A stretch of DNA of 64,000 bases. Origin: Centruroides vittatus (Eukaryota). The translations under genes and the position numbers were made by a program. Shown here piece by piece: positions 15,909 to 42,287 of the stretch. Below the pieces are notes generated by a model. That model searched no databases. It saw only the letters and a program-made list of their open reading frames with translations, and was not told where the DNA came from. Position 1 is the first letter of the stretch, and each line of letters opens with the position of its first letter. The stretch spans positions 124,099-188,098 of the forward strand of contig NW_027122668.1 of the NCBI RefSeq assembly GCF_030686945.1, in the 5' to 3' direction.

Positions 15909-17414
15909 TTAACCTAGATGTTAATATTATGAAAACTATTTTATTTTAATTTCAAATTAAATTATTTATTATTGTAATATGTATAATATATTAATTTTTA
16001 ATTCTGAACATTTGGAGATAAAAAGAAATTTATATATTATTTTTATTTATTATCATTAGGTTAAATAAAGAAACAATACATTTACCTAAAACCTATTATT
16101 ATTTTTAAATCCAAAAAATTTATATAAACCTCCAAAATAATTTGGAATATAAATCATCTATTGAGTTACAATCAATAATTTATATACTTTTTTTAAATAA
16201 TTCAAATTTATGATGTAATTTAAAATGTATATTTGTTAAATTTCATAATAAGTAATTATTGAGCTTTCTAAATTGAAAATTTTCCACGATAAAAGGAAAT
16301 TATTATGATCATTACAGGGAAAATTCTCAAAATTTATTATTTATAATGAAGTTAATGGCTATTTAAAACATTCTTCAATTTTTAATTTGTATAAATATTT
16401 AACTGCGTCTTCTTAAATCAAATATGGATTTTAAGTATGTCAAAGATTTGGCATCCGTTCAGTAATCACCTTAATAGCGTTATAATAGCTCGACATAGAT
16501 ACTTGTAAGCCGATAAGAATTAAGTTTAAAGTTTTTTAAATATGAAGGTGTAGAAGTTCTGCATAAAAAGTAATTAAAACTTAATTACAGTTGTATCAAT
16601 TTTTTTTAATTAGAATAATTTTTTTTAAAATTCTGATTATTTTTGCGTTAATTTTGCATCGTACGGTGTTTCATTTTGAAAAGAATTGTAACGAAATCAT
16701 TGATTTTTGTCGTTCTCGAATGCTGCCACATTGATCTACTTCCTTAGATATTGGATCATTGCCAGTAAACAATGAATAATATATATCTACGATATATATT
16801 TTCATGTTTACTGCACGGTTGTCATTTTGACATTTTAAGCTTTAATATATAAATTTCAGGTAATATTTTAAAGATCATTGACTGAGCTTATTATTTATAT
16901 AAAATCTATCATTTTAATTGCACATCTTAACAAATATTTTAAATAATTTTTTTAATATATTTTAATAGTAATAAGTCTAATGTTTAAGTAAAAAAAAAAA
17001 TTATTAAGTACGATTTATTCTGTTTACTTTTACGCATGAAATCAAATGTGTTTTTTTTGTCGGGAAATATATTTTGTAATGCTTGTTTTTATATTACTTT
17101 AATGTTGTTAATCATCATAAATTTTTATTATTTAATGTGTTTATCAGGTTTCTTTGAATTACATAAACAAATTTTTAGAATAATTACTAATTTTATTCTA
17201 ATGTTTTAAATGTTTTCAAGTAAATATTAATTTTTTTTAATAGCAATATATATTTTTTTTTTTTTTTAAAAAAGATTTTCTTCTGATTAAATGTAATCTT
17301 AACAGTTTTATTTGATATAAGAATGGAGTGGTTCTGAATTTTAAAATTATGAAAAACATACATTACTGAAGCAATTATTTAACAAATTTTTGTGCTAGAA
17401 AGGTACAAAAGATG

Positions 17415-17585
17415 CAGTGGCGTAGCGAATGTAACTGTTGCTGGGGTATAACTGGCGCTTGACACTTTATTGGTGCCCCCCTCCAGAAACACACATAGTT
17501 TGTCTTGGAGACCATTTGGGCACCCCTCTGTGAGTGGAGCTCGGTGCATGAAACACCCCCTTGCACCCCCCTTGCTACGCCACTG
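17415..17585. mobile_element. hAT-like MITE (cagtggcgtagc family), present in copy 1 only
   Basis: Same family as 3122..3288, in inverted orientation. At the corresponding site in copy 2 (about 41480) the sequence agaaagggatgaaaggttctcctagtg is uninterrupted. Confidence 0.5.
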
Positions 17586-17886
17586 GAAAGGTGCCTCCTA
17601 GTGTTTTCTTGTCCTGAAGAAGTTCCATTCTAGAGAATTAAGAGTTTGAAAGAGGTTAATTTTTAAAAGTACACAAAATTTGACATGTTTAAGAGAAATT
17701 AAAGGAATTTCTCATCTTTCTATAAGAAGTTGAATTCTATAAAACTTTTAGGACAAACTGTACATATATATAATAATTAAAAGACCTTAAAAAGGTAATA
17801 AGGTGAAGTGATTTGAATTATTAATGTTTAGAAAGTTAAAATTGCTTTCAGTCTCATTTCACCTCAAAATTAATTAGAACTATATA

Positions 17887-18191
17887 CAGTAGAGCATCGA
17901 TTATCCGACTTAATTGGGGACTGGGGTTGGTCGGATAACTGAAAAGTCGGATAACCGAAAAGTATGAAAAAATACATTATTAGTATAGTGTATTAGGCCT
18001 GGTTTAAATACTAGCCTCCCTTTCATCATCGAGCCATGCTGCCAGCTAAAACATGCAAAAATTTAAAAAAATAATATTAAAGTAGCCAAGACAACCAAAT
18101 ATTGTAGCGCCACATCACTAGCGGACATTTGAATTTGCCGACTAGAACGCGGTCAGTTAACCGATAAGTCGGATAATCGATGCTCTACTGT
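17887..18191. mobile_element. Tc1/mariner-like MITE (TIR cagtagagcatcgattatccgac, TA duplication), present in copy 1 only
   Basis: ta|cagtagagcatcgattatccgacttaattgg ... ccgataagtcggataatcgatgctctactg|ta. At the matching position copy 2 carries a different, unrelated insertion (41716..41810 and neighbouring sequence). Confidence 0.55.
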
Positions 18192-18455
18192 AATTATATA
18201 ACAAATACATTTGGGTAGATTGTTTAGTATCTTTACTCATATATTTAATTATTTGTATGATTAAAAACTTAGTTGATTATGGAAGTTACTGTGTTAAAGC
18301 TATAGAAGTTTTTAAATATTTTCTGTTGTTGACCAGTGTATTAAAATTATAAATCTGTACAATCCAAATAAAGAAGTTTTTAAATTTAAATCATACAAAA
18401 TTTATAAGAAAATTGAATTCTTTTCTAATGTTTTCTATATTGTTTAGTTGGCGAA

Positions 18456-21400
18456 ATGACTACTCCAAAGCATAATCGTAATGAGGAGAGTATCTACAGG
18501 ATCCCACCATATTATTATTTACATGTTTTGGACCAGACATCAAATGTTACAAGAGTGGAAGTTGGTCCACAGACATATATTCGCAAGGAAAATGAAAGGT
18601 AAGAAAATTAACTTAAATAAAGCTATAATAATCTCATAATACAAGTTATATATGAAATTAAATTGTAGTATTAACTCTGCACCATATTGATTTTAAGCTG
18701 TAATTAACTGATTTATCAAACTGTTTATTCTTAGAATTTTGAGTTATAAAATATTTCTTTTATTGATGGTTGATTTGAAATTTCCTTTTGCCAATATATA
18801 TACTTTTTTTTCCTCTTTACTATTCGATGCATATTTATTCCAATATACAATTATAAATCAAAAACTGTTAATCATTTTAATGTATTAAAAATAATTCTTT
18901 ATTTTTTTAATGTCCTTACTTTTAAAAATATACCATGTAAATAATGAAATACAGTAAAACTTCTGTAACTTGAAGTTTTTTTCCTGCCTCTTTCAAGTTA
19001 GACAATTCAGATTAGAGAACAATACTGATAAATGCCAATTCCAAGTAGATTAGATCTCTTGCATTTTATATAAAGAATCTTTGATAGTTTTTTGTTTTAA
19101 ACAGCTGTTTAATGCCTTTTCATCAACATGTTAATGTAGCTAACAGAATCAGTTTTGCAGGTACAGTACATCTTATCGAGATAAAGCAACAGATCATCTC
19201 ATTTTGGACTGGAATGTTGTCTATAAATAGGTGTTGGACAGTATATACAACTAACTGTCTGAAAACTTCGTGAAAATCAACAATTAGGATCACTTCAGAC
19301 AGAATAAGTATTAAAATTCAAGTCAGGATCAAGTCAAGTATAAATCTAAACTGAACCAAATATTTCACAAGATTCTAAAAAATGTTACAATAGAACACAT
19401 GTAAATGTCACTATAGAATATAGAAATAAGACTGACTTCTGAAAAGAATATTTTATTGCAATAAATTTGCACTTCTACAACAACCTAAATCAACTTTCAC
19501 AAGGTTTTGGCTTAGTCTTCATCGGTTCAACACCATACTTGTGGAGCCATCTAAAAAAGTTTTTCCCTCTTCTAACTCCTGTATATTTCCATCTTATGGG
19601 TAGAAGACAAAACTAGAGTTAAAATGAATTCTAAGCAATGAATTCTGTAAAACTGTAGCTCTTCAATTAATTAACGAGCATTGAATCTACTAATTAAAGT
19701 ACCTTACAATAGAATATTACTTATATATTATATGAGTATAAATAAAACATGATTTTATTATCATAGTGATATTTTGATAATGATAAGTATTAGGTGACAA
19801 AATTGAGTTGCATGGTCTTAACCAAACAGTTAGTTAGTTAGTTAGTTAGTTAGTTATTGAATAAAATACCAAAAAGGTGCATTTCCGGTACCGTAGAATG
19901 ACAGAACTGAGGGAGTGATTGTAAGAGGTGCAGTGCGAAAGGAAGACACAATGCATGGTCCAATTAAACAAATTTAATTTTGTGCTTAAAAATATATATA
20001 CAGTTTCTTTAGTTTTGCTGTTGTACAATTCCGGCTACCTTCTGATGGTTTCAGTGTTGCAGGCAATCCAGGTAGTTGGTCTTATCCCAACTACTAACCG
20101 ACAATGGTTTGTGTCTAATAGTCTCTTGCGCAATTCCTAATCTAACTTAATCTAATAGAAGATGGATAGAAAAAGGGGAAGTAAGAAGAATAATAGGATA
20201 AGGGGTACCCAGTTTATCGGTGAGTAGTCCAAGTATTTCTTTGTCTCGACTTCCAAATCTTGAACGTTTTATTCTCTTGCAGTTCGGCTATCTCAGAGTT
20301 CTCCTCCAGATGTATCAATATACTTCTTTTTTGATCCGTTCTCTATGGTCTCCTTTTTTACAGCGCTCGTCGGATTCCACTTACGAGCCTTGCCACCACA
20401 CGTCCGTTACCTCTCGTGTCCGGCCCAAGAATGTGTCTTGGAATTTCTATTTTCCCCTCCAGCTCCATCGCAGACTATTGTTTTCACCCTACCTCCTGGT
20501 GGGCTAGGGGAGAGTCTGAGTTCTCGGAAGTTCGAAACAAAGGGAATTGGAAGGAAGGATAAATTTATAGAAATAGAATATAAAATTAAATTAAAAACTA
20601 TACAAAATAGAATGGTGTACAGCCACATGATATTTGTGAGGGTGACAAAAATGAGGGATGAGTGTAATCCAGTCTCTATGAAAAATTTGATCACATTATG
20701 AATTTTTTTTATTCTAGAGTTTAGTTTTGATGTTACAGGAATTCCTTGACTTTTGGACAATTCCCTCCACCTCTTTTTTTGTACATTATATTTTGATACC
20801 TCCGAGTTACTTTTCTTAGATAAAATTTGGATTTTTATACATTTTCAGCGACAAAAAAAAAACATTTGAGAGATTGTGCAGTGACTTGCTACTGATCTAG
20901 ATTTTTCTAACATAAAAATCAATTCATTTTGTAAAAAATTACAGTAGAGACCATCATAATACCGTTTTGTTTTATGTAAAATAGAAATAAATACAGTAGA
21001 GCGTCGAAAAGTGGAACCAATTGGGGACTGGAGTCGTTCCAAGTAGTGATTTTTTCCAATTTCCGATTATGTACGAAAAAATATATTAACCTGTCCGATG
21101 TTCAAATTTTTCTTTGTTGCGTATCGCTTCCTGTTGAATTTTTCTCCGTTGCGTGTCGTTTTGTGTTGAATTTTCGTTGATTTTAAGCCTAACGAAAATT
21201 TTTATAATAATAATCGAGGCTATCGTATCGTTAAAAATTATTTCTTTATTTTGTACAAACAAAATAAATATATTGAAGAATATAAAAAACATGAAAATTA
21301 TACTTTAGAAGTAAATTTAGTATCAAAAACGTTCGATTCAGCACGACACAGTCCGACTGAAAATCGTTTCAGTTTCTGGCCATTTCAATTACCCACGTTC

Positions 21401-24400
21401 CACTTTTCGACGCTCTACTGTACTATAATTTTTAAATAAAATTTTATAATTAAATATTTTCAGAGTTATTTTGGGACCCGAAAAAATGATCATTGTTCCT
21501 CCAGGTCATTATTGTGTGATACAAAATCCTGTGATAAGAGACAATGATGGAATTATTCAATATGATCTATATGGTCAAAGTAAACTGCGACATGCTGACT
21601 TAGAAATAAGATTACAGCAAGATCCTTTTCCTTTATATCCTGGAGAAGTTTTGTTTCAGGTTAGAAGATATTAAATATTCGATTTTTCTTAAAAATTATT
21701 TTAAGTGCATATTAATTTATACATCATAATTAATTTTATAACTTTATTGTACATTGATAAAGAAAGTACAGATTCTATTAATATTTGATTTATATAGAAG
21801 ACTAAGATTTTATTGTCGTGCTATCTATATCCTGGCTGATTAAGTATATCTTACCAAATTACATATCATCTATATATTTAACTAGCCAAGTTACAGTTTG
21901 ATAATAAACCCAATTTTATCATTTAAGTAATAAAATCAATTATGTAGTGTATATTTTTGATATTTATTAATTAACGTCAACTAATTTTAAGTGGATGAAT
22001 AAAATAACTTTTTATACTGATATCAATAAACAATTTATTAGATTATATTATCAGAATTCATCTTTGTCTTCATATTACTCAATTTTTCATTTTGAAATAG
22101 TAATATTTGTGTTCTTTAATTTTAATTTTGCAATTTCATCAAATTTAAGTTACATTTGTGCTATTGTATGCTTGTAAAACAAATATTTTTTTCAAGAATA
22201 CACTAACAAAACATATATAAACGTTTTGAAAATATTTGTGTTAGATGTTTAATTTTAATATTATTCTTAATATACATTATAGTCATGACTATAATGTATA
22301 TTAGTATATTAGTGTTCTCCAGAAATTTTTACCAGTGAGATGAAATGTGTGAAGAGGTTCCAAAAACGAGTTTAAATTAAACATTTATTATAGAAACTTA
22401 TTAAAACAAAACTAGAGGAAAAACACCTCCATTGTTAAAACCGATGAAAGATCAGATTCTTTGTGCTAGTCATATGAAACTGGGACAAGAAAAAAAGACT
22501 ATTAGTGAGGTTGAGGCAGAAGTTTTAAACGTGAAAACGTGTATGTTGGACGTTCAGCGCCACTTTCCTGTAAGCGTGGAAATTTGACAATGATGTTTGG
22601 AATATTGAGCATGATTCCACTGACTTTCCAAATGCCATTGTCAAACTTCTAGGCTTATGGAAAGCGGCGCTGAACGTCCAACATACACGTTTTCACATTT
22701 AAAACTTCTGCCTCAACCTCGCTATTAATGTAAAACACAATGCAATAAATGAAAACTAATGTTCTCCAGTAGAGATGGACCTATGACAAGGCACTCGTAT
22801 ATAAGTAAATAGAACATAGAAAAATTTTGGAAAAGGGAACGGTTAATTATGAAAGGAGACATTGTGTCAGGCCATTAAAATTTTAAGACATCATACACTA
22901 GACAACAATGAGTTAAAATATGAGCGCAAGAGTGGGAAGAAGAGATGTGGAACCAGTCAGAATGGACAAAAGGGGGAGAATGGAGATTGATATAATCCCT
23001 GATTGTCAAGGTCAGGGGACACTCAGTTAGTGGAGTCCAAAGTGAAAAGATGCTGTGTGTCAATACATGGAAGATGGAGCTTTCTGTCCTTGTGCCATGC
23101 CACCGATGCCAACTAATGAATCTCCTCATCTGCTGCAGAAAAAACATCCTCGAACCTTCAATTGTTTAAAGCACTTTGTGCATAGAGTAAGTTATTTCCT
23201 GTCAAAATAAACGTGTTATGTGAGATACTTGTCATCATTTGTCTCCTCTGCCACAATCTCACACGAGCATCCCTAGATCATCCTGACGCGGGATTAACGA
23301 TCTCCTCCTAAAAGTTGGCTAACTTACAAATGGAGTAGCTGGAGTGATAAAAAATACTGCCGTTTTTATAAAATTTTTTATTCATAAATTCAATTCATAT
23401 TTCTTCATAAACAATACATCCACATAGACATAAACAAACACACCTATATTGAAAGTCATTTGAAAGAGACTGTGCAGACAGGGCCGGCCTTCTCGATAAA
23501 GGGGCCCGGGTGCAAGAAACTATTTGGGCCCAAATGTTTTTCTAAAATAAAAAAATTTACAAACACGAACATATATTAATGCATGTTTATTTAAAGCGTG
23601 ATTTTGTTCTTGCTAATACATTAATTACTTCAGAAAAATTACTAAAAATACTGCATTCTTGATAATGTTGGGGCCCCCTCAATCGCGGGGCCCCGGTGCG
23701 TAGCATCCGCCGCACCCCCCCGATGGCCGGCCCTGTGTGCAGAAGTTAATTCACCACATGGATTAGCTTCTGCAAATGTCAGTTGGCAATGGGTGATTAT
23801 ATTGTTAGACTAACCCAATTTTATAGTAGTGAAAGTGTCAGAATATTTTAAAAAGTTTATTAAATATCAGTTTTAGTCAATTTTAATAAATATAACAATA
23901 GTATTTTGTATGAGTAAATCACAGTGTACACAATCTAGCAGAAAAATGCCATGGTAAATTATTGTGAAGCAGAAAAATTTTGTTTCTAAGCATGGAAAAA
24001 TTATAGAAAAGATAATTTTTGCTTTTGTAACAATTACTACAGAAAATGAGAATAGAAAAGTTTTTACATGCCAATTCTGTTTAAAATATTATAAAACAAA
24101 TTGGCATAACCTCAACTATTTTCACCTCGGAATGATGATAGAAGTTCAAGATAGATGATGGTATGGTCAGTTGTAAAGCATTCATTGATCATGATCATTC
24201 TCAATTCCTTTATTATCCATTAAGGCAAACACCCAACAAACTAAACACTTGGTAAATGTTAGAAAATTTATTTACACTTGATATAACATGTATAAGTTCA
24301 ATAAAGGATGCCAACTCTAGGCAAGACCCAATCGTTGGTGGAACAATATGACGACATACTGAATCCATACAAAAATCAATGACACTTATTACAAAAATAA

Positions 24401-27400
24401 TTTTTCTAAAACTAACCCTTAATACTAAATGTACTCTAAGAAAGGAAGATTGCTACTTTTTGCCCCTCTTCAAAGGTGGCAGATAGGACAGAACAAAAAG
24501 TATGCGGGTCATACAAACATCTTCCTGTTATTGTGAGGGGCCATGTGGAAACTTCTTACATACAATACATGCTTGTCTTATCCTCAGTTCCTGAGGGTTT
24601 TTACTTGTATCCAAATTGTCGGTCACTCTTTTGAAACTTTCAACTGGTCAAGAATGCCAACTCAAACACTGGGAATTTCAAGGTTTCCACTCAGTTATAA
24701 CTTCACCCATCTACTTGGGCACCGGACACTATAACATCTCTCTTCTTTCATCATCATTTCTCTTCAAACACCAGCTCAAAAGTGACCTTCCTTTGCCTTG
24801 TACGCCCTCAGATAACCTTGTACTCATTATACTGATTATTTCAGGAAGTGGCTCTCACCTCTAAGAAGGAAGAATTAGAGATTAGCAAGTTCTAGAAGGG
24901 AGAAAGAACAGAGTAAGAAGAACAAAGACGAAAAGCGACATACAGTGGACAATCACAATATGAATAAAAATTACAAAATATTTTACATAATCAGTAGTTA
25001 CTAAAATCCACTAAAAAATAGATAACATTATTTTCTAATTTCTCTCTTATTCTGAAATTATAATCTGAAATAAAAGCATTAATTAATGGAACCTAATCTT
25101 GACACTCCTGTAATGTAAGCCTACTGCCCACTCTACCTAAGTCTCAAACTGATACTGACTGTAAGCAATCGACATTACATGCGATTTTGTTACTTCATTT
25201 ATTGAATTCTTTATGCTACTGAGAGAATTTATCTTTTTCTGCATTACTTTATTGTAAGTAGGAATGGAACTTCACAATTCTGCATTCCTGTTCTTACTCA
25301 CTATTTTGTCGGTGCAAAGAACCAGGCAGCAGATCCATAAAAATGGATCTGATTTCAAACTTTGTAATTTGATACACAGTACTCCTGAATGATAAATCAG
25401 AATGTTTTTTTCTTTAAAAATAATTTACAAAATTTAGAAGTCAAATGACATTTTTAAAATAGAGATATCTTTTTGTATTCCACAAAACTTGGCACTGTGG
25501 TCAACTTTTAAATTCTTAAATATCTACTTCTTATGGAAACTAAATATATATATTTTTGGCCCTAAAGTTGTATTGGAAATTAATGGAAACTGAAGACAGC
25601 CTATTTAGGGCCGAAAACATTTAATTTATAAAAAAAAAAGAAAGTCTTGGATTCCATACAAAGTGGTTACTTAAGAATTTTAAAAAATCATTTGCTTTTG
25701 CATTTATATCTTAAAATTTTCTAAAATTTAATTATTTAATAAATTTTTAGGAAGTGAAACAATTACAAGTTGTTCCTGCAAACTGTGCTCTCAGAGTTCG
25801 AGCATTAAGAGATTTTGAAGATGGTAAAATAAAAAGAATTGCAGGAGACGAATGGCTGTTTGAGGGTCCAGGTATTTAGGTTCATATTTACTAGACATAT
25901 AGTTAGACTTCATAAATTACCGTTAATCAATAAAATTATTTGACTTTGTATTGTTTGTCACACTGAATAAACCACAAGAAAAGACAGAAAAACAAAATTA
26001 ATTTAAAACAGATGTAAATTTTTTAAATGTAAGATGTGTTATCATTAAAAATAACTATAAAAACATTGAGACGTTATAGAAATAAGTTTTATTTCCTCAA
26101 TATTTACTTTCTAAGTAAAAACTTAATTTGTGAAAATCATTTTTCAAAGTTAATCACCAGAATTTATTGCTTTATTTTATAGGAACTTATATACCTCGTA
26201 AAGAAGTAGAAGTAGTAGAAAAAGTTAAAGCAACCGTAATCAAACCAAATCAAGCCTTAAAGCTACGAGCAAAGACCGAAATGATCGATCGTGATGGAGT
26301 AAAGCGTGTAATGGGAGAAGAATGGTTGATTAAAAAAGTTGGTGCTTATTTACCAAGAGCACATGAAGAAATTGTTGATATTGTCAATGCATATATTCTA
26401 ACAGAAAAAGTAACTTATTTGGCTTCACAAAATTTATTTGGTTTTCAACTAAAATTTATATATATGTTAACCTTTCTTATGTACTGAAATTTGTATTTTC
26501 TTTAATATTAGGAAGCGGTTCACGTTCGTGCAATTAACACATTTGTTGACGATCTGGGCAACACTCGAAAGAATGGAGAAGAATGGCTAGTGAAAATGAC
26601 AGATGTCGACACCTACATTCCAGGAGTTTACGAGAAGGTTGTAGGAGTAATACCTATTACGGCGCTTTCAAATCGTCAGTACTGTGTTATTCTAGATCCT
26701 GTAGATGAGAGCGGTAAGCCACAGCTAAGCCAGAAATTGTTGGTTAAGGTAAATTATTTTAATTGTAACTTAATTTTGATTTATAGTAATTTACGAAATT
26801 ACAAGTTTGATTTTTGTATAAATTAAGTTATTCAGTTCATTGAGAGTTCAAATTCTTGAAATTTTCTACATTTATTATTTTATAATTATTTTATTACTAA
26901 AGTCTATAAGCATTTTTATTATTATTTAAATCTAAAATTTTATTAGAAATTTATAATCTACTGAAACAAAGTTACTTACAAAAAAATTCTTAATTTTCTC
27001 ATTTTAATATTGTGGGTGCGCCTGGAAGTGGACAGAGTTGCACCTTCCTTTTTGTCGGCTAATAGGTCGGTGATACCTGCCCATGTCAAGATGGCGGTTC
27101 GGATGGATTACGCGTTATGCATTCTTCGCGAGTGGAGGAAGCGGATGGGTCCGACGATAGAGCGGCGCCGATACTCGAATAAATGACATGAACAACGTAT
27201 AGAAACAACAACAATTTATTAAGACTAGAGCTAAAGGTACAATAGGGCGAGCTACAGTCACCTATGGTTTAGATACGCGGAGGGAGAGTTTACACAAATT
27301 TGGGGAGTCATACCTCGTGGTCCGAATCTGTCCTTTCTCTAGGTCAAAGTATCTTCGGCAAGGTATTCCTTTCGTTCGCCGTCGGAACGCGCACACACTG

Positions 27401-30400
27401 TATAATCGACACTCCGTAACCGACCCCCTTTCCCGCTCTCGTCGTCCTTTTATTGTCTCTGGTCACGTTTTGCTTTTTCACCAACCAGCGTTATTTGAGT
27501 GTTGTTCCTCATGATTCATGTTTTCTCCATGGATCCAAACAATAAAACATTTTATGGCGAGTGATTTTGGTTCCGGCAGGTTTGAATTTTCACAATATTT
27601 TATACATATATCATGGCATAAATATAGTTTTCCACAGTAAACTTAATTTAGAATTCCAGTTAAAAATTGATTTTAACCAAATATAGTTTTTAAATTATCA
27701 AAATAACTTTTCAATTTTGAATACAGGTACTCCTCACTTTACGATCGAGTTCCGTTCCGATGACTACATCGTTAAGCGAATTGGTCGATAAGTGGGGAGC
27801 TTGCTCCAGGAGTATAGGATCGTTGTAAAATTATCCAAATTATTCAACAAACTTCAAATTTATTCATAAAAAGACTATTATAGTACGCTATTAGCATATT
27901 ATAGTACTATAAGACTATTATAGTATGCTTAGTGCACATGTCACCATTTGCCACTGAACGACACTCAAGCTGAGAAAGGGGATTCCCTGAATTGCAGGTC
28001 GAAACTCGATTGGTCGTAAGTGAAAGTGGTCGTTAAGCAGATAGGTCATAAAGTGAGGAGTACCTGTAAAGTTAAGAAAATAGTTAGCAAGAATGTATGG
28101 CTCCACTTCATCAAAATATGGAAACTGAATAGCTCAAGCTCAAAATAGCTGCTTTAAAGTGACTTTCTGGGCTGTTCACTATGCTTTCTCAAATTTCTTT
28201 CATCGTCACTTTCGTGCAGATGCTCAGCTTTTCGAGTTTTTCGAGCTTTTCGAGTCAGACTTACCAATGGTCATTTTCCTATTTCTTAAACTGTTTAGAA
28301 AGTAATTTGGTGATTATACAATCTGGTGCTCGTGAAGTTTCGCACTCGTATTTCTGATGTTTTATACCACGTAACAGTATCTTTTCGATGCTGGTTCATA
28401 AGTGTAGAAATAGCCATTTTTGACATGTTACTGTAGTAATAACAATAATAATAATGGGCAGTATGACAGTAAAACATTATTAATTTACAGTTAAAATCTT
28501 TTAAAGTGTATGTAATAACCTTGTTGAAATGTAAAGAATATAGAAATTAACTTTCTACAGTTCATACAGTAAAATTTAAGACAAAATTTATTGGAAATTT
28601 TGCAATTTAACCGAATTAAAATTTTTATTTCCTGAAATACATTTAATTAATAATTGATTTTAAAAAACTTAGTTAAAATGTCACAAAGTTTTTCCTATTG
28701 TGAATTGTCAGATAGAGTTAATATGATACAGAAATAATTAATTTTTAGAAATAAGTTTTTACTTTATATTTTTGAAATCAATATTTTCAAATCAAAATTT
28801 TAAAATTTCTATAACTATAGACGATTTTATTTAAAACAGGGAGATAAATCATTCTTTTTACATCCTGGCGAACATTTGGAAGCTGGTATTCAAGAAATAC
28901 ATGTGTTGAGCGATAACGAAGGGCTTGTTTTACGTGCAAAAGAAGCTTTTGTAGATACCACCGTAACACCTGTAAGAAAGACTTTTTTCCTCGTTTATCA
29001 GTTTAATAATCATATTAACTATAAATGGGTATAATTTTACAACTTTGAAAACTTTTTATTTTAAAGGCAGTTCAGCGTCAGCCAGGAGATAGATGGATGA
29101 TCAGTGGTGCAGCAGAATATATACCTCCAAACGAAGTAGAAATTTTAGCGAAAAGAAATGCTATTCCTCTTGATGAAAATGAAGGAATATACGTTAGAAA
29201 TATTAAAACTGGAAAGGTAAGAGGAAATTTTTAAAAATTTTAGATAAATATGTTTTATCATTATAAGAAAGTTAGTTGGCTAAAAGTTTTATTTCTTTCA
29301 GCTATATTTTAATCTCAATAATAATGATAGAATGTACCTGTACATATTCTATTTAATAATAGATATTATGATAAATATTTTATTAACTGGATAAATAAGA
29401 CTACAATATAATATGAATTAAGAGTTCTGCCTTGGGCATGCGAGGCCATGCAGAGCAGTTTCTCCAGTGTGGTGGAGTCTGTAAACAAAAAGTCCAACTC
29501 CAGGAAATTTGTATGGTGTGACTCCTACCTCAGTTTTTTTTTTTTAAAGTAACACTAAGTAGATTCCTTTTTTAAGAAAGACATCATGTGCAGTGCCTGA
29601 ATATTTTATTTAACATTTCTCTATAAAATGTTTTTACTAAAATTTGATGATGGTAAGAATCAAAAAATGGATATAGCAAATTTACCTCAAAAACCTTTAG
29701 AGTACATAAACACACATCTTAATAGCCAAAAGAATTCCACTTTTATTAGTTAATTATGAAAAGTTGATTTTAAATTTAATTATTTTAAAGAAGAAAAATT
29801 AAATACAATAAATGCAAAAAATAACGATTTGATGACTGACGTAATAGCGAGGTTGAGGCCGAAGTTTTAAATGCGAAAACGTGTAAGAAAACGGACGTTC
29901 GGCACCGCTTTCCTGTAAGCCTAGAAGTTTTACAATGGTGTTTGGTGTCAGTGGAATCACGCTCGACATTCCAAATGCCATTGTCAAACTTCTAGGCTTA
30001 TCGGAAAGTGGCACCGAACGTCAGTCTTACACGTTTTTGCGTTTAAAACTTCTGCCTCAATCTTTTTAATAAATTGGTTCATAAAATAGTTTCTCCTGCT
30101 CTGGCTAGTTGACTAAACTGAAATATACAGTAGAATTTAAAGAAAAATATTTTTTTTTTCCAAATTTTGTCATCTTGGACCAATGGGTGCAGTCATACCC
30201 TGAGAACTTAAACCAGTGAAAAATAAGCTGGAACAATCTTATTAATTAAATTTTGTAGATTTCTCCTTTCTTAGTTTGTTGCAGTTAGATTCTGATCTTT
30301 GTTTTACTTTTTTCATTGATTTTTCTATTGACTGTTTTAAGACCAAATTATGATATCAAAGCTATAATAAATTACTCAAAACCAATAGAAGGGCAGTGAA

Positions 30401-33400
30401 AAAATTAATCAATCAAATTAGTAAAAAAAAAGTTGATATCCAAAGTAAAACATCTAAGATGTAAAAAATTATGGCACCCAAAATGAAAGTCAAATTTTTT
30501 TTTCTTGGGCTTCTCTTTGGTAAAGATGAGCTTAGCTTTTCGAAGCGATACCACATGCATTTACTTTCCAGGCGCAATCCCACGACTAACTACAAGTAAT
30601 CACTTGTAGTTAGTCGTGTTAGATTAATACAGATTAGTGGTGGAAATAGTGATTTTTATCCACTTGTCACTGGTGGGCCGTAGCTTTTACTAATTTATTT
30701 TCTGAAAGTACACACATCATGTATGAAACGACCTTTATGATTAATATCATTTTGATATCTAAATTAATTGAAGAGTCCATTTTCTAAGAAATTTCTTTAG
30801 ATACTAATTAAAAAGTGTATTTTTTTTTTTTTTTTACTTCACATTTTACAAATAGTAAACTTTGAGGTTGGAGTCAAAAGAATTTTACTGACTCCACAAC
30901 ACTTGTTTCTCCTCCTATTTTTGAATGTCCACTTGATATTTATACATGTGTAAATCATCTTATTTCACTACCAAATAAAATCTTTGTAATAATGCTAGTG
31001 ATAACTTTTAAAAAATAAAGCAAAATAATCACTAGTATTATTAAAAATAAAAAATAATTACAGACTTTAATAGCTCACTAGATAATATATTTAAGTATTA
31101 ATGTTTATATTATTTTTAACAAAAAAATGAAAATAGGTTCGTGCAGTCTGTGGAGAAACGTACATGATGAATCAAGATGAAGAACTTTGGGAAAAAGAGC
31201 TGTCGCCAAATGTCGAATCACTTTTGTCGGCTCATTACGATCCGATGGCCGATCGTGGACGGTGGGCAGATAAACAGTCTGCTACTTCTGCTGTTTCCAG
31301 AGATAAAACAAGAGTAATAACTTTTCGTGTGCCACATAATGCAGCGATTCAGATATATGATTACAAAGGGAAAAAAGCACGGTAAGTTGAAAATTTCACA
31401 AAAATACAGTAAGACATTATAATTTTTTTTTTTTTTTTTCCAATTTCTAAATTATTTCATATTTAAATTATGATTTAAATGTATTTCAAATTGTTTAGAA
31501 CAATATACTGAATATTACACAAAAATTGTTTGTAATTTTTAAATTTCATTTTCAAAATAGTGTGGTTTTTGGTCCAGAATTGGTTATGTTGGGACCGGAC
31601 GAACAGTTTACGCAACTAAGTTTATCAGGTCACAAGCCAAAAAAGCCTAATGTGATTCGGTCTTTGTGTCTTCTTCTGGGACCAGATTTTTGTACTGATG
31701 TCATTACTGTTGAAACAGCCGACCATGCTCGCTTACAACTTCAGCTTGCATATAATTGGTAAAAATTTCGGATAATTGTATAAGAAAATCTGAATAGTGT
31801 TTTTGATACTTTGATGATTTAAATTAAGAATATAATTGTTTTTAAATAATTGAAAATAATTTTATGTCGATAATTATTGTTATTTATTATTTAGGCACTT
31901 TGATGTAAGTCAAAAGGATGACGCGACAGCTTCTAAATTATTTGCGGTACCAGATTTTATTGGTGATCTTTGTAAAGCCGTAGCATCTCGCATTAGAGGA
32001 GCCATAGCATCGACTAATTTCGATGACTTTCATAAGGTTAGTAATTATTGTTGATGAAACACCGTTAATAATTTTGAGAATCCGATAACATTTTATGGAA
32101 TTGTTAAACAGAATTCTGCTACAATCATCAGAGCTGCAGTTTTTGGCTATGATTCTGATAGAAAGATCAGAAATAGATTAATCTTTCCACAGAATAATTT
32201 AGTAGTAACTAGTGTAGATATACAAAGTGTAGAACCTGTAGATCAGCGAACTAGAGATTCTCTTCAAAAATCAGTACAACTTGCAATTGAGATAACAACT
32301 CAAAGTCAAGAAGCAGCTGCCAGGTAACAAAGAAATGATGATTAAAATGCTTTATTAAATGTATATATTTTTTGTTTATTAATATTTTACATACTTTATA
32401 GACATGAAGCAGAAAGAAGAGAACAAGAAGCCAGAGGAAAATTGGAAAGACAAAGAATTTCCGACGAAGTAGAATCCGAACGAAGTCGTAAGGATCTTTT
32501 AGAATTACAGGCAGCTAGCATGGCAGTAGAAAGCTGCGGACAGGCAAAGGCAGAAGCAAAAAGCAAAGCCGAAGCCCTGAGAATTGAAGCAGAAACAGCC
32601 GTCGAACAAGCTAAATTGAAAGTTGATGCTATGACAATTGAAGCAGTATGAATCTTTTATGTTCCTTTTAATAGTTTTTCATTTATTGTAATAATCATAA
32701 TAATAGAAAAATAGAAAACTGAAATCATTTTCTAATATATTAATATTAAAGTTTCCTTTTATTTCTATTACATCAGATAGTTTTCAAACATTGCATTTGT
32801 TCAAATTTTTTTTATAGTGAATAATTTTGACTTTAGATATTTTCCTACTATCCTCTATTAGACAGGCTTGAATTAAACTTTATAAATACATTGAAATAAT
32901 TATTTAAGAAATGTTTTTAAATTGCTGCTGTTATATTTAAATAATTTCTTAAAAGGAAGCAGAATTGGAAAGATTGATGAAGGCCAGAGATGCCGAAATC
33001 AGTTATCTTCGCGAACAAGATGAATTGCAGATTAAGAAATCAAAAGAATTGGCAGAAATAGACGTACAGAAATGCAAGGATATAATAAGTGCTCTTGGAC
33101 CCGACACAATTCGTGCCATAGCTCTGGCAGGACCAGAACTACAGGTAAATTGATACGATATAAAATAGTTAATAATTCATAGTAGAGCTTCAGTTTTAAA
33201 ATAGTTTATCATATAAAAACAAATATCAAAATGATATTGCCAAGAAGTTGTTTCTTAATTACTTAATGAAATATTTACAAATATATAATTGACTACAATT
33301 TTGAGTTTACTTTTGAAAGTCTGTCTGTTCAGTCTGAGTTCAAGCTGAAGAAATACACATGTATGAACACCTATGTGTAAACTACATGCATTTCAGCTTT

Positions 33401-33620
33401 TCTAGTTCTTTATAATAAAATGAAAAGTTTATTTGCAAGAAACTCAAACAATATTGTCATAAATTCATTTTATTTTCAGGTAAAGATTCTTCAAGGACTT
33501 GGACTTCATACAACTCTCATCACTGATGGAAATTGCCCCATAAATTTATTTAATACTGCACAAGGATTGATAGGAAATTCCTTATTGGAACCACCCACTA
33601 AAATACAAAAGGTCGAATGA
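18456..33620 (+). CDS. MVP: Major vault protein, copy 1: intact 14-exon gene, 858 aa
   Basis: The translated exons match the MVP family end to end: [33 protein letters not shown]; [15 protein letters not shown]...[22 protein letters not shown]; [23 protein letters not shown]; [14 protein letters not shown]; [16 protein letters not shown]; [19 protein letters not shown]; RVVFGPELV...[32 protein letters not shown]; IRGAIAS..FDDFH; [33 protein letters not shown]; LLELQA.SMAVES.G.AKAEA.S.AEA.RIE; ALGP.TIR..A.AGPE.QVK.LQ.LGL..TLITDG..PINLF. Exons: join(18456..18598, 21464..21659, 25751..25871, 26183..26409, 26512..26748, 28840..28971, 29067..29216, 31137..31381, 31561..31758, 31895..32036, 32112..32323, 32402..32645, 32956..33144, 33480..33620). 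All introns are GT-AG with consistent phase. The total is 2577 nt, or 859 codons including the tga stop at 33618..33620. An acceptor, tgtttag|, immediately before the ATG exon implies an untranslated exon further upstream. Confidence 0.88.
19829..19856. repeat. (TTAG)7 microsatellite, present in copy 1 only
   Basis: The run tagttagttagttagttagttagttag is absent from the matching position in copy 2 (about 44990). Confidence 0.6.
20994..21420. mobile_element. Tc1/mariner-like MITE (TIR cagtagagcgtcgaaaagtggaac, TA duplication), present in copy 1 only, 43 bp upstream of MVP exon 2
   Basis: Filled site: aaataaa ta|cagtagagcgtcg...cgacgctctactg|ta ctataattt. The empty site in copy 2 (about 46735) reads aaataaatactataattt. 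The exon 2 acceptor is at 21463. Confidence 0.6.
22504..22727. mobile_element. Palindromic 225-bp MITE (same family as 6626..6854) in MVP intron 2
   Basis: tagtgaggttgaggcagaagttttaaacgtgaaaacgtg ... its reverse complement. The duplicated image is at 47816..48038. Confidence 0.55.
23479..23735. mobile_element. hAT-like MITE (TIR cagggccggcc, 8-bp duplication tgtgcaga), present in copy 1 only
   Basis: tgtgcaga|cagggccggccttctcg ... gatggccggccctg|tgtgcaga. Copy 2 (about 48910) has the empty site gactgtgtagaagttaattc. Confidence 0.55.
27011..27599. other. Copy-1-specific insertion of about 590 bp (GC-rich, unknown nature) in MVP intron 5
   Basis: Copy 2 (about 52110) reads ttaatatt|ttatacat without interruption. 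Copy 1 has gtgggtgcgcctggaagtgg...ggtttgaattttcacaatatt inserted between the direct repeats aatatt. It has no recognisable TIR, tail or coding signal. ORF 27317..27514 is unsupported. Confidence 0.4.
29844..30062. mobile_element. Palindromic 225-bp MITE (same family) in MVP intron 7
   Basis: tagcgaggttgaggccgaagttttaaatgcgaaaacgtgtaag ... its reverse complement. The duplicated image is at 54352..54570. Confidence 0.55.
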
Positions 33621-35473
33621 TTTTTCAGTACGTAAATATAGTAATTCACCACCTCCTTAACAAGTTACTGAATATTTCTTTGTCTGCAGGAATAAGGAAC
33701 TCGCTAAGGCCAATGTAAAATTGGATGACTGCCATTTTCATTCCTTAAAATAATTACTGTTACTTGCAAGTGTTAATGAAGTTTAAGACTGTGTGCAAAC
33801 TCAGATTTGACATTATTTTGTTGTTGAAATATGAGCATTCTATTTTTAATACTAATGATACAAATTGTTGTTTAAAATCAAATATATTTTTCTGCTTTTG
33901 CAATTTCTGTAAAATTAAACAGCTTTTCAAGTTTGTCTACATACCATGTGAGGGAAATTGATGTGCTTATAACAAATAAAAATGTATGCAGATGTTGATT
34001 ATTTATTTATCTAAATACATCTGCTAGTAGAATATATATATATATATTTATTCTACTAGCAGGCCAGTGTTGCCCAGGTAAAAAGTAATACAAATAAATA
34101 TTAAAATTTAAGCATTGCATAATAATTAATGGGGCTTTATTAGGTTTAATGCATTATTATATAATTTTCACTGCATCAAATTGAAATTATAGGATTCCAG
34201 AGGATTTCATCCATAACAATTACCCCTGCAGACCCAGCAATGTTTGGGACCCACAATTGGAAGAAATTTTAAGTTGGTAAGAAAGTGCAGTGAGATTTTA
34301 CATTGAAAGTTCTGTAAAGAATATTTTGTACATTTCATTACAGTAGCAAATCTTAAGGTGTTTTTTTGTATATGTAAAATTATCTATATCTACCCAAATG
34401 TTGGTTATTTGGAAAACATTATTGTTTGTATTGTTTCCAGGGAAAATAAATTTATTTGTAAATAATGTCATTGCTAACAAACTATTAGTTTAAGATGCTA
34501 AACTAGTTGATAAGTTATCTTTGGGTTCTGTAAAACTGACAAAGACAAGAGGATGCAATGTTATAACCAGTTTTCTTTTAATGAAAACAATGTTATGTGA
34601 AAATATGCCTTCCTTTCGTCTTCACAATAACTAAGTCCCAAGAGACCTATATTCCGCAACTTTTTTCTAAATTCTTTCCACCTTGTAGACATCGTTTTTT
34701 TTCCTCTATACCCATTGTGGGTTTGACCACACCCACAATGGAGACCAACAAGGGGTGAGGGATGGGATCTAACATGAGTTTAACTAAATGGGAAAACTCT
34801 GGGGCATTGCTTGCCCAGATTCAAGCCTGTCCCCAGAATGTTAGGCTTTACTGCCTTGGCCATCCAACCATCTCATGTTTCTTAACTATCTATGGGAAAC
34901 ATGTATATGCCGAAATTGGTTTTAACAGGAACGTAGACAAAGCATTCTCTCTAATAATGGTCAGATGGACGAGGTAGTTAAGGCATCAGCCCACTGCTCT
35001 GGGGATCCAAGATTGAATTCAGGTGGTCAAAAAAGATTTACTCATGGATCAGGTAAAAGATGAGCTCTTCAAAAAATTTGCAAGGTCCCTACTGTTTTCC
35101 ATTAAAGTACTGCAAGTTAGCTTATATTTTCTGCAAGATCCTAGTAACTGAAAAATTTGGTTTGATCAGTCAGATGGCTTAGAAGTGTACAGAGAACATA
35201 CAGGCAACAAATACACTATTTCTTATATGTAATTAAAACATAATTAGCAAATTCTGAATTATAAGTCAATATTGAAGATGATGATAATAATTAATATAAT
35301 GTGTAGCAAATCAACAACAAGAAGATCTTATGGATTTTATACATTATCAATACTACACCTTAAATTCTTGTATAGAGTTAATTTTCTTCTTTTCTGTATT
35401 GTTGGCATGCCATTAACTTCTCATAGATGTGCTAAAAAATTTCATTAGATAATGCTAATAAAATATTTGTATA

Positions 35474-35805
35474 CAGGGTGGGCAGCGAAAACGAAACGGC
35501 AGAGTGTTCGTGTTCGTCCAATCAAATCGCTCGGACAGGTCGATTTTATTCTCGAGGGAACATCTTATGCAATAAAGTTTTTGCAAATCTGAATATTAAC
35601 TAAACAAACATTTTTTTTCCGAAATAAATGTTTGTTTACTTAATACAAAATAAATGAGTTTTTAAATTTTTTTGTTGTCTGTTGTATTCAGAATCGCAAA
35701 AACATTATTGCAAAAGATGTCCCCTCGAGAATAAAATCGACCTGTCCGAGCGCTTTGCTTGGACGAACACGAACACTGCCGTTTCGTTTTCGCTGGCCCA
35801 CCCTG
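35474..35805. mobile_element. Foldback, mariner-like MITE (TIR cagggtgggcagcgaaaacgaaacggcagagtgttcgtgttcgtcc..., about 110-bp arms, TA duplication) lying just inside the 3' edge of duplication copy 1
   Basis: ta|cagggtgggcagcg...cgctggcccaccctg|ta. The arms are about 110-bp inverted repeats around an AT-rich centre. The identical element closes copy 2 at 59996..60329. The two copies share only the 6-bp TATATA after the MITE right TIR (35806..35811 and 60330..60335) and then become unrelated. Confidence 0.6.
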
Positions 35806-35814
35806 TATATAAAC

Positions 35815-38759: not shown

Positions 38760-39006
38760 CTTAAATTTATCTTTGTATACTAAGTACAGTACATTTATCA
38801 ATTAACAGGACTTATTATACTGGAAAATTATGGATGCAGATATTTAGTCTTACTGATCAGAAATATTATAAAAATAAAAAATATAAAAAAACTAAATAAA
38901 AAATATTATTTCTGATCAGTAAGACTAAATATCTGCATCCATAATTTTCCAGTATAATAAGTCCTGTTAATTGATAAATGTACTTAGTATACAAAGATAA
39001 ATTTAA
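38760..39006. repeat. Near-perfect hairpin: two inverted arms of about 105-110 bp around a 35-bp A-rich loop
   Basis: Left arm: cttaaatttatctttgtatactaagtac(agtac)atttatcaattaacaggacttattatactggaaaattatggatgcagatatttagtcttactgatcagaaatattat. The loop follows, then the exact reverse complement. The only mismatch is a 5-bp agtac bulge. The flanking direct repeat gacgtcactttt lies at 38707 and 39007. ORFs 38866..39123 and 38978..39175 are artefacts of the palindrome. Confidence 0.7.
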
Positions 39007-40641: not shown

Positions 40642-41715
40642 TCTTCACCCACGTGGTATTCGGGAGCTTTCTCGTTCTCGTCTTTCCTCCTTCAGCTCTG
40701 ACTCAAAAGTGACTCTTTGTCTTGGTTCTACCCCTGAGGGCTGCATACAGTCCTATTGTCCATAATGGGGTCACCTATTGTTAAGCCGTTAAGCACCGGT
40801 CAGGGAAGGGTTCCAGGAAGTAAAGATAATATGAATAGGAAAGAGAAGGAAAAATATATTCTAAGTTAAAATAAAATATAACTATATATTACACAAATGG
40901 CATTTAGCCACAATATATCTACTGACCAGGTTGTCATTTTGACATTTTAAGCATTAATATATAAATTTCAGTAATATTTTAAAGATCATTGACTGAGATT
41001 TTATATAAATAATAAGGTATTATTTTAATTGCATGTCTTAACAAATATTTTAATAATTTCTTTAATATATTTCAATAATAATAAATCTAATGTTTATGTA
41101 AAAAAAAAAATTGTTAAGTATGATTTATGCTGTTTACTTTTACGCATGAAATCAAATATGTATTTTTAGTCGGGAAATATATTTTGTAATGCTTGTTTTT
41201 ATATTACTTTAATGTTGTTAATCATCATAAATTTTAATTATTTAATGTGTTTATCAGGTTTCTTTGAATTACATTAGTAATTATTCTAAAAATTTATTTA
41301 ATTTATTCTAATTTTTTAAATGTTTTTCAGTAAATATTAATTTTTTTTAATTTAAAAAAGATTTTCTTCTGATTAAATGTAATCTTAACAGTTTTATTTG
41401 ATATAAGAATAGTGATTCTGGATTTTAAGATTATGAAAAATAATTGCTTCAATAAAGTATGTTTTAACAAATTTTTGTGCTAGAAAGGGATGAAAGGTTC
41501 TCCTAGTGTTGAAGAGAAATTAAAGGAATTTTTCATCTTTTTATTAGAAGTTGAATCCTATAAACTTTTAGGACAAATTATACCTTTGTATAATAATTAA
41601 AAGACCTTAAAAAGATAATAATGTGAAATGATTTGAATTATTAATGTTTAGAAAGTTAAAATTGCTTTCAGTCTTTCATTTTACCTCAAAATTAATTAGA
41701 ACTATATAGGCCTAT

Positions 41716-41810
41716 CGTATTTTACGGACTATAAGACGCACCTTTTTCTTCGAAAAATTGCCTCCAAAATTCAGGTGCATCTTATAGTTCGTAAAATACG
41801 GTAATTGTTA
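41716..41810. mobile_element. Small palindromic MITE (cgtattttacggactataagacgcacc ... ggtgcatcttatagttcgtaaaatacg), copy 2 only
   Basis: A perfect inverted repeat with about 30-bp arms. It sits at the site where copy 1 carries the unrelated Tc1-like MITE 17887..18191. Confidence 0.45.
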
Positions 41811-42287
41811 ACGTATATAATTAACTTTATTATAATATACAAACATAACTTTGTGGTAATACAAACTATTGTGCCTCCAGGTCTAAGGGTCACCACAGCT
41901 AACATACAACTGCCTGGAGACAAAGGAACATGACAAAGGTCAAAGGTGAGGGGTTGCCTAACTAGGTCAAGGGGCAATTCGGTGTGGGTTATCTCCTGGA
42001 GGTTTATATACCTAACAATAATTATATAACAAATACTAAATAATATCTTTGTATATCTTTACTCATATATTTAATTATAATTATTTCTATGAGTAAAGAT
42101 TTAGTTGATTATGGAAGTTACTGTGTTAAAGCTATAGAAGTTTTTAAATATTTTCTGTTATTGACCAGTGTATTAAAATTATAAATCTGTACAATCCAAA
42201 TAAAGAAGTTTTAAAATTAAATCATACAAAATTTTATATGAAAATTGAATTATTTTCTAATGTTTTCTATATTGTTTAGTTGGCGAA

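Follow-up and report, generated by a model that had tools for sequence, protein, structure and literature searches.

[quoted passage not shown] The OXSM gene beside MVP shares 99% identity with its C. sculpturatus counterpart. As in that species, OXSM lies on the flank that copy 1 continues into, while copy 2 borders the downstream side; C. sculpturatus likewise shows a partial second MVP copy. Copy 1 is the intact MVP gene: its exon model has GT-AG borders at every intron and yields an 858-aa open reading frame whose product is identical to C. vittatus RefSeq protein XP_067140071.1 and matches the PDB major vault protein (E=2e-57). Mapping the MVP exons onto C. sculpturatus exactly reproduced that species' protein P0241, which validates the model. 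Variants specific to exon 1 of copy 1 are 18494C, 18497C, 18509A, and 18563T. We compared the two duplicated units by self-BLAST and MAFFT alignment, which gave the same breakpoints as a first-pass annotation, and used the C. sculpturatus MVP ortholog as the outgroup for polarity (Table 1).

Table 1. Features of the duplicated MVP locus, in window coordinates
Feature	Position	Strand	Description
Duplicated unit, copy 1	16817..35811	+	Self-BLAST; intact MVP, CDS 18456-33620, 14 coding exons
hAT-like MITE, copy 1 only	17415..17585	.	171 bp, upstream of start codon; perfect 12-bp TIR CAGTGGCGTAGC
Tc1-like MITE, copy 1 only	17887..18190	.	304 bp; perfect 26-bp TIR; 265 bp 5' of ATG
Copy 1 coding exon 1	18456..18598	+	Donor GT at 18599; exon mapping reproduces P0241
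TTAG-repeat insertion, copy 1 only	19830..19898	.	69 bp, intron 1
Tc1-like MITE, copy 1 only	20994..21420	.	427 bp, intron 1; perfect 24-bp TIR
MITE-to-exon-2 interval	21421..21463	+	43 nt, invariant across both copies and C. sculpturatus
Copy 1 coding exon 2	21464..21659	+	Acceptor AG at 21462-21463
hAT-like MITE, copy 1 only	23479..23735	.	257 bp, intron 2; 11-bp TIR; perfect 8-bp duplication TGTGCAGA
Element with TGTG...CACA ends, copy 1 only	27011..27594	.	584 bp, intron 5; 4-bp duplication ATAT
Duplicated unit, copy 2	40929..60335	+	MVP copy, CDS 42288-58142; all splice sites retained
Unclassified insertion, copy 2 only	41709..42018	.	310 bp; missing from copy 1 and C. sculpturatus
Element with TGTG...CACA ends, copy 2 only	42572..43309	.	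738 bp, intron 1; 4-bp duplication TATT
Foldback element, copy 2 only	43384..43936	.	553 bp, intron 1; TA-flanked; inverted arms ~230 bp, 94% identity
Unclassified insertion, copy 2 only	45223..45860	.	638 bp, intron 1; 5-bp duplication AGTCT
Copy-2-only segment	48243..48355	.	113 bp, intron 2; C. sculpturatus does not align there
1-bp insertion (C), copy-2 exon 8	55814..55814	+	Frameshift; stop five codons later

Every copy-specific insertion listed in a first-pass annotation of this DNA was recovered to within a few bp, and in the pairwise alignment none of these elements occupied the corresponding site of the other copy. Some boundaries required adjustment: the Tc1-like MITE given as 17887..18191 is real and ends one base earlier, since the flanking TA starts at 18191; the 590-bp GC-rich insertion given as 27011..27599 is also real (47% GC vs. 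approximately 31% background), with an end that had included the duplication; and the copy-1-only (TTAG)7 microsatellite consists of approximately 6.5 TTAG units plus 42 bp. On the copy-2 side, the insertion at 41709 (previously placed at 41716) and those at 45223-45860 and 48243-48355 were confirmed, and the elements at 42572-43309 and 43384-43936 had been missed. All copy-specific insertions are confined to the region upstream of the gene and to introns 1, 2, and 5, and no exon or splice consensus is hit by any of them.

Pairs of filled and empty sites define the boundaries of these elements, as previously proposed. Target duplications of TA flank both Tc1-like MITEs, at 17885-17886 and 18191-18192 for the upstream element, whose C. 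sculpturatus empty site is ACTATATAATTATA, and at 20992-20993 and 21421-21422 for the intron 1 element, whose empty site is the copy-2 TA at 46732-46733 and which is absent from C. sculpturatus too. The intron 2 hAT-like MITE corresponds to an empty site TGTGTAGA in copy 2 (48907-48914) and is also missing from C. sculpturatus, while the hAT-like MITE at 17415-17585, missing from both as well, has a decayed 8-bp duplication (AAAAGATG vs. GAAAGGTG, 5/8 matches). For the TTAG-repeat insertion, the C. sculpturatus alignment continues through the copy-2 empty site. The 584-bp element has its copy-2 empty site at 52121-52124; no more than 1-2 bp from the same position, C. sculpturatus has an insert of approximately 630 bp that is unrelated to it. 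Among the copy-2 insertions, the one at 41709-42018 shares its target TA, to within 0-2 bp, with the copy-1 MITE at 17887 and contains a hairpin with a 31-nt stem at 41713-41803, although its TA "duplication" sits in a TA run and could instead have arisen by slippage. Both the 738-bp element (copy-1 empty site 18726-18729) and the foldback element face empty sites in copy 1 and C. sculpturatus; the 638-bp insertion has a copy-1 empty site at 20120-20124 in a stretch to which C. sculpturatus does not align. The 113-bp segment at 48243-48355 showed neither a TIR nor a duplication, and could be an insertion or a deletion.

The outgroup is empty at seven of these sites (17415, 17887/41709, 42572, 43384, 19830, 20994, and 23479), each of them clean, free of any footprint, and with the target in single copy, and the differences there are therefore insertions rather than deletions. 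Loss does occur at the locus: two segments that appear to be copy-1 extras, 17602-17685 and 26841-26882, are nonetheless present in C. sculpturatus and are therefore copy-2 deletions, and the 113-bp segment lacks insertion hallmarks. It is nevertheless extremely improbable that the presence/absence differences reflect excision or deletion in the other copy, given the footprint-free outgroup sites and the intact TIRs and duplications that the elements retain. Chance cannot explain perfect 24-26-bp inverted ends located exactly at indel boundaries. The earlier proposal of separate transposon insertions in each paralog is thus borne out by the termini and duplications at these boundaries together with the seven empty outgroup sites.

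The family labels assigned earlier, Tc1-like for TA duplications with CAGT... ends and hAT-like for 8-bp duplications with CAG... ends, also hold. The inverted ends of Tc1, Tc3, and Sleeping Beauty begin with CAGT, and the two Tc1-like elements resemble Tc1/mariner (Stowaway-type) MITEs in their TA duplications, perfect 24-26-bp ends starting with CAGT, size (304-427 bp), lack of a transposase ORF, and related copies in two Centruroides species. Family copies in C. sculpturatus lie at L002 25246-25698, L002 31612-31817, and L001 4579-4935; the 17887-18190 MITE has relatives in both L001 and L002, and the 20994-21420 MITE is related to the L001 copy. They differ from such MITEs in that no autonomous partner was seen, so a link to a specific Tc1 lineage is putative. 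The 553-bp copy-2 element shares the TA duplication but has CATGG/CGTGG ends and long arms, making it more foldback-like. Similarity to hAT MITEs (Ac/hobo/Charlie-type) extends to 11-12-bp ends starting with CAG, a size of 171-257 bp, and 8-bp duplications, both in the intron 2 element and in a sister of the 17415-17585 MITE at 3122-3288, whose perfect duplication GTTTGAAT fits the nTnnnnAn preference and supports the hAT label; the two elements come from unrelated families, with no transposase source identified. The 584- and 738-bp elements are probably solo LTRs, a label drawn from their termini and duplications. Like solo LTRs of Ty3/gypsy or BEL/Pao elements, they combine TGTG...CACA termini and 4-bp AT-rich duplications with a comparable length, a GC content above their surroundings, and internal AATAAA motifs, although they are mutually dissimilar.

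Divergence between the copies varies greatly along the unit. Across the upstream 1.1 kb the copies differ by 9.6%, compared with 8.5% and 11.3% to C. sculpturatus, a paralog divergence as deep as the split between the two species, whereas across 31436-35435 they differ by 0.1% vs. 7.4% to C. sculpturatus, with no mismatches in 31436-34435 and one in 34436-34935; divergence stays at approximately 0.1% over the 3' 6.5 kb. Copy-specific insertions number seven in 16817-20128, four in 20129-27600, and zero in 27600-35811. This 5'-to-3' fall in divergence points to gene conversion, and recent homogenisation of the 3' 6.5-8 kb would explain why no copy-specific insertion is found there. The pattern resembles other tandem duplicates under partial gene conversion, with 3' paralog divergence approximately 70-fold below ortholog divergence, paralog and ortholog divergence equal at the 5' edge, and insertions only in the unconverted part. 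Conversion is proposed here from the divergence pattern, and correcting near-identical repeats with short reads could inflate their identity: the assembly combines PacBio CLR reads from a pooled male and female with Illumina correction (PMC11304958), and the perfect 3' identity could partly be an artefact of that polishing.

The same pooling, the nearly identical 3' halves, and the presence of only one C. vittatus MVP in the 90% protein cluster would fit two haplotypes, or the two pooled individuals, that the assembler placed one after the other, with the insertions as allelic polymorphisms. We consider this very unlikely, as the spacer has its own sequence, the flanks match the OXSM and downstream sides of the outgroup, the window has no Ns, C. 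sculpturatus has its own partial second copy, and an upstream divergence equal to a between-species distance is far too high for alleles. The two units are better read as paralogs.

The coding sequences of these paralogs differ by 11 nt, 2 amino acids, and one 1-bp insertion, with a dN/dS of 0.06. Neither copy 1 nor either of the two C. sculpturatus copies of exon 8 has the copy-2 insertion in that exon, indicating that the frameshift is derived, although it could partly be a polishing artefact of the same kind as above. Because of this frameshift and a faster-evolving upstream region, copy 2 is probably decaying, or else carries an assembly indel error.

Taken together, we consider it highly probable that an MVP segment of approximately 19 kb was duplicated in tandem; that the copies would have been long separate upstream and in introns 1, 2, and 5, each gathering its own Tc1/mariner-type MITEs (TA), members of two hAT-type families (8-bp), two probable solo LTRs (4-bp), and unclassified pieces; that the 3' part would have been homogenised by conversion; that copy 2 is probably decaying or misassembled by an indel; and that the MITE near exon 2 is likely splicing-neutral. 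The first-pass statement that these families were active "after the duplication" needs qualifying: "after" here means after the last homogenisation of each segment, with divergence ranging from approximately 9.6% to 0.1%. Copy-specific mobile-element insertions in non-coding DNA are ordinary genome evolution.

The 427-bp MITE does lie 43 bp from the exon 2 acceptor, as first described, ending exactly 43 nt before the exon. Earlier placed at the expected position of the branch point and polypyrimidine tract, it actually sits upstream of both, leaving the adjacent 43 nt untouched, and the final 50 nt of intron 1 show 100% identity across the two MVP copies and C. sculpturatus. These 43 nt contain a T-rich tract and TTTAT, the sole yUnAy match, whose A lies at -18, and no arthropod-type CTAAT/YTRAY motif. 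A scan of the MITE for splice signals found no GTRAG donor and only one pyrimidine-preceded AG.

It was further suggested that the MITE could affect splicing of copy 1, which would mean weakened branch-point or 3' splice-site use and poor joining of exons 1 and 2. The short remaining distance, the missing CTAAT/YTRAY motif, and the separation of a conserved block of approximately 290 nt (approximately 94% identity to C. sculpturatus) from the acceptor all lean this way. There is also a human precedent: Wallace et al. (1991; cited in PMC3219598) reportedly described exon skipping in NF1 caused by a de novo Alu that had inserted 44 bp before the exon, so that distance alone is no guarantee of normal splicing. 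Against this, the invariant acceptor region retains its yUnAy match, the MITE offers no good donor, other MVP introns are as short as 75-136 nt, and copy 1, under purifying selection, is the sole intact MVP ORF and equals the RefSeq protein, the obvious defect being in copy 2; we therefore regard the suggestion as unsupported and a splicing defect as unlikely. With its 3' splice signals intact within the invariant 43-50 nt, copy 1 is most likely spliced normally and the MITE neutral, and its insertion would merely lengthen intron 1.

In human NF1, disease-causing retroelements are known to have inserted into introns close to acceptors, and some integration sites recur; these are L1-endonuclease-driven Alu and L1 events with documented aberrant transcripts (PMC3219598). 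Unlike those elements, the scorpion insertions are DNA transposons or LTRs, but in both systems an element lies a few tens of nt 5' of an acceptor and some sites have been hit in two independent events. In the scorpions these sites are the TA at 17886/41708 and the position shared by the copy-1 LTR and the C. sculpturatus insert.

To characterise the copy-specific insertions that distinguish the two tandem MVP duplicates, we delimited the copies by self-BLAST and global alignment, which place both in direct orientation on the + strand (copy 1 at 16817-35811 and copy 2 at 40929-60335), and aligned them pairwise. The alignment confirmed the copy-specific presence or absence of every element that the first-pass annotation had listed, with coordinates right to a few bp, and added two copy-2 insertions in intron 1, starting at 42572 and 43384, that it had missed.

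Positions of the copy-specific insertions, neighbouring features and related elements in Centruroides sculpturatus (L001 and L002 are the C. sculpturatus MVP loci in GCA_000671375.2; all other positions refer to the window)
Feature	Position	Description
OXSM gene (mitochondrial 3-oxoacyl-ACP synthase)	7555-9219	355-aa ORF at 8152-9219, 99% identical to C. sculpturatus
Copy-1-only insertion	17415-17585	171 bp; perfect 12-bp ends CAGTGGCGTAGC
Copy-1-only insertion	17887-18190	304 bp; perfect 26-bp ends; TA duplication
Copy-1-only insertion	19830-19898	TTAG repeat plus 42 bp
Copy-1-only insertion	20994-21420	427 bp; perfect 24-bp ends; TA duplication
Copy-1-only insertion	23479-23735	257 bp; 8-bp duplication TGTGCAGA
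Copy-1-only insertion	27011-27594	584 bp; 47% GC
Spacer between copies	35812-40928	5.1 kb; without a long ORF; several inverted-repeat elements
Copy-2-only insertion	41709-42018	310 bp; unclassified
Copy-2-only insertion, intron 1	42572-43309	738 bp
Copy-2-only foldback element, intron 1	43384-43936	553 bp; TA-flanked
Copy-2-only insertion	45223-45860	5-bp duplication AGTCT; unclassified
Copy-2-only insertion	48243-48355	unclassified
Tc1-like MITE relative	L001 4579-4935	
Tc1-like MITE relative	L002 25246-25698	
Tc1-like MITE relative	L002 31612-31817	

The window has ~31% GC and 0 Ns; the published C. vittatus assembly, which combines PacBio CLR reads from two individuals with Illumina correction, has 30.85% GC (PMC11304958). 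The flanks 5' of copy 1 and 3' of copy 2 correspond to those of the single annotated C. sculpturatus MVP. Our copy-1 gene model (858 aa, 14 coding exons, every intron GT-AG) matches residue for residue RefSeq XP_067140071.1, "major vault protein-like [Centruroides vittatus]", and its exon structure mapped onto C. sculpturatus yields the exact RefSeq protein of that species. PDB matches (E=2e-57) independently back the MVP identity; a 140-aa MVP fragment used as a protein query returned short fragments at ≤84% identity. Elsewhere in the window, a 339-aa ORF at 4041-5060 is multi-pass membrane-like, and a C2H2 zinc-finger-like ORF at 63361-63708, 3' of copy 2, lies in a region that aligns to C. 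sculpturatus downstream of MVP. The spacer holds a ~1.37-kb element with ~115-bp inverted ends (39264-40636), a hairpin (38760-39007), GC-rich stretches and a segment (39141-39241) that matches positions 1-104 of the window at 97%. At its 3' edge, the duplicated unit contains a palindromic element (35480-35798).

Presence in one copy and absence from the other could reflect loss from the empty copy rather than gain by the filled one, and we used the C. sculpturatus ortholog (82-94% identity in non-coding DNA) as outgroup to polarise these differences. The outgroup has clean empty sites with a single copy of the target at 17415, 17887/41709, 42572, 43384, 19830, 20994 and 23479, which rules out loss at these seven sites and identifies the insertions there as gains. 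Two smaller copy-1 "extras", at 17602-17685 and 26841-26882, are also present in the outgroup and are thus deletions in copy 2. For the element at 27011, copy 2 provides the sole empty site, and the sites at 45223 and 48243 fall where the outgroup gave no alignment.

The structure of the insertions allowed most of them to be assigned to known transposon types. TA flanks bound the elements at 17887-18190, 20994-21420 and 43384-43936, with empty sites in both the paralog and C. sculpturatus. The ends of the first two start CAGTAGAGC, as in Tc1-type elements (5'-CAGT...), whereas the foldback element at 43384 does not start with CAGT. Both are overlapped by chance ORFs of ≤68 aa only, and they share ~45 bp of terminal sequence with each other and with three C. 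sculpturatus copies; of these three, the copy at L002 25246-25698 was inserted into MVP intron 12 in C. sculpturatus alone and is lacking in both C. vittatus copies. The two elements belong to a multi-copy family of Tc1/mariner-type MITEs, mobile in both species; no transposase-bearing copy of the family was found in the window or either outgroup locus.

For the elements at 17415 and 23479, short TIRs with a hAT-like (C/T)AG start (CAGTGGCGTAGC, 12 bp; CAGGGCCGGCC, 11 bp) are accompanied by perfect 8-bp target-site duplications at 23479 and at 3122-3288 (GTTTGAAT), the latter a sister copy of the 17415 element, whose own duplication matches at only 5/8 positions. These two perfect duplications support a hAT-type label for the 17415 and 23479 elements alike, as MITEs of two unrelated families; the sequences analysed contain no autonomous hAT transposon. 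TGTG...CACA ends and a 4-bp AT-rich duplication (ATAT at 27011-27594, TATT at 42572-43309) characterise two further elements, which from this structure are probable solo LTRs, with no further copies of either in the window, L001 or L002. Since neither TIRs nor relatives were found in the window or the outgroup loci for the insertions at 41709, 45223 and 48243, these are left unclassified. Rfam gave no match anywhere in the window, so none of the insertions shows a tRNA- or SINE-like RNA signal. A full-text literature search with the TIR sequences returned only unrelated primer matches, and the families are apparently undescribed members of well-known kinds. We also observed a ~225-bp foldback element common to both copies (22503-22727 and 47813-48037), with further family members at 6626-6854, 29842-30060 and 54349-54567; its ~44-nt central loop is inverted between the paralogs (flip-flop), producing a local identity dip to 88%.

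The first-pass annotation had placed the 427-bp MITE in copy-1 intron 1 43 bp from the exon 2 acceptor, and this figure is exact, as the acceptor AG lies at 21462-21463. Its further proposal, that the MITE occupies the position of the branch point and polypyrimidine tract and could affect splicing of copy 1, is disfavoured by our analysis. The MITE stops short of the 3' splice signals, on their upstream side, and leaves the 43 nt before the AG unchanged, such that polypyrimidine tract, branch point and AG are neither removed nor displaced. Copy 1, copy 2 and C. sculpturatus do not differ at all over the last 50 nt of intron 1, and the preceding 240 nt show ~94% identity, compared with ~85% for typical intron sequence. 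Within the 43 nt, the sole yUnAy match (TTTAT, branch A at -18) is retained in copy 1. Other MVP introns are as short as 75-136 nt, indicating that the splice signals can be compact. The MITE sense strand lacks a GTRAG donor, and just one of its AGs is preceded by a pyrimidine. With unchanged 3' signals, no such donor, and copy 1 being the intact copy, whose model equals XP_067140071.1 (an indirect sign of normal transcripts), a real effect of the MITE on copy-1 splicing seems quite improbable on sequence grounds. We still allow it a small chance because the MITE splits a conserved intronic block and because exon skipping reportedly resulted from an Alu located 44 bp 5' of an NF1 exon (Wallace 1991, cited in PMC3219598).

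Comparing divergence along the duplicated unit revealed a mosaic. In the upstream 1.1 kb the two copies differ by 9.6%, compared with 8.5% (copy 1) and 11.3% (copy 2) to the outgroup; across introns 1-5 (20129-27005) they differ by 0.7-1.9%, compared with 1.7-8.6% to the outgroup; and over 28936-35435 by only 0.1-0.3%, compared with 7.4-8.9%. This last segment shows ~12 differences in 6.5 kb from its counterpart at 53443-59957, and within it 31436-35435 has a paralog distance of 0.001 vs. 0.074 to the outgroup, with 0 mismatches over 31436-34435 and 1 in 34436-34935. The mosaic indicates that the 5' edge of the duplication is as old as the species split while the 3' part was homogenised recently, with a tract of paralog similarity far above that between orthologs beside a tract lacking this excess, as in tandem duplicates with gene conversion. 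The near-identity of the 3' tract suggests that gene conversion acted recently, or that near-identical repeats were over-polished. Stacking of two haplotypes in the assembly, which would make the duplication itself an artefact, is unlikely given the unique spacer, the asymmetric flanks and the interspecific-level divergence upstream. The copy-specific insertions are distributed in line with the mosaic and number 7 in 16817-20128, 4 in 20129-27600 and 0 in 27600-35811. The earlier statement that the transposon families were active after the duplication is correct, although, given the divergence mosaic, it strictly means after each segment's last escape from homogenisation.

The copy-1 LTR-like element was considered as the edge of the converted tract and rejected, as divergence is still 2-5% up to ~28935. 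In the C. sculpturatus locus L002, MVP exons 8-12 are repeated (22075-25466 vs. 28602-31835) at 99.7-99.9% identity beside a 2.2-kb N gap, the repeat being annotated as a 339-aa MVP-like protein; this partial second copy reflects a mis-assembly or else indicates that the duplication is older than the species split.

The coding sequences of the two copies differ by 11 substitutions, which cause two amino-acid changes (G138D and T452A), with a dN/dS of 0.06. Exon 8 of copy 2 carries an extra C at 55814 (copy-1 counterpart 31292), which shifts the frame and leads to a stop five codons later. The extra C lies outside any homopolymer and is derived, since neither copy 1 nor the two C. sculpturatus exon copies have it; a CLR or assembly indel error is its remaining alternative explanation. 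The 90%-identity protein cluster contains one C. vittatus MVP only. We regard copy 2 as a probable young pseudogene. Its upstream region (40929-42287, against 16817-18455 in copy 1) has accumulated 61 unique changes vs. 33 (p=0.005), as well as an 84-bp deletion.

All of these features fall in known categories, namely Tc1/mariner and hAT MITEs, solo LTRs, partly converted tandem duplicates and intronic insertions of uncertain effect, and they leave knowledge of transposons, vault proteins and splicing unchanged. Their value lies mainly in annotation and methods: boundary-exact, outgroup-polarised examples of (recently) active scorpion MITE families, one Tc1-like and two hAT-like; a C. vittatus MVP pair recognised as combining old sequence with recently converted stretches; a flag on copy 2 as a probable pseudogene; and insertion sites that would be handy presence/absence markers in work on Centruroides populations or species.

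One point is mildly unusual, namely the repeat use of the same integration sites. The TA at 17885-17886 (41707-41708 in copy 2), ~265-270 bp before the start codon and represented in C. sculpturatus by the empty site ACTATATAATTATA, independently received the 304-bp Tc1-like MITE in copy 1 and the unclassified 310-bp insert in copy 2, within 0-2 bp of each other. That these are diverged copies of one element was rejected, as they share no similarity and the outgroup site is empty. Similarly, in intron 5 an unrelated ~630-bp C. sculpturatus insert (L002 19906-20544) lies 1-2 bp from the copy-1 LTR-like site (27007-27010); an ancestral origin of both as one element was likewise rejected for lack of similarity. 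Under uniform targeting, the chance of each coincidence is roughly 1% or less. We tentatively raise the possibility, which we consider rather doubtful, that the MVP locus contains real integration hot spots and that copy 2 is decaying under transposon load. If so, the pair would, with the faster upstream evolution and frameshift of copy 2, represent a natural case of transposon-loaded decay in which gene conversion meanwhile holds the 3' half of the decaying copy identical to the working one. Recurrent use of integration sites has a precedent at NF1 (PMC3219598).
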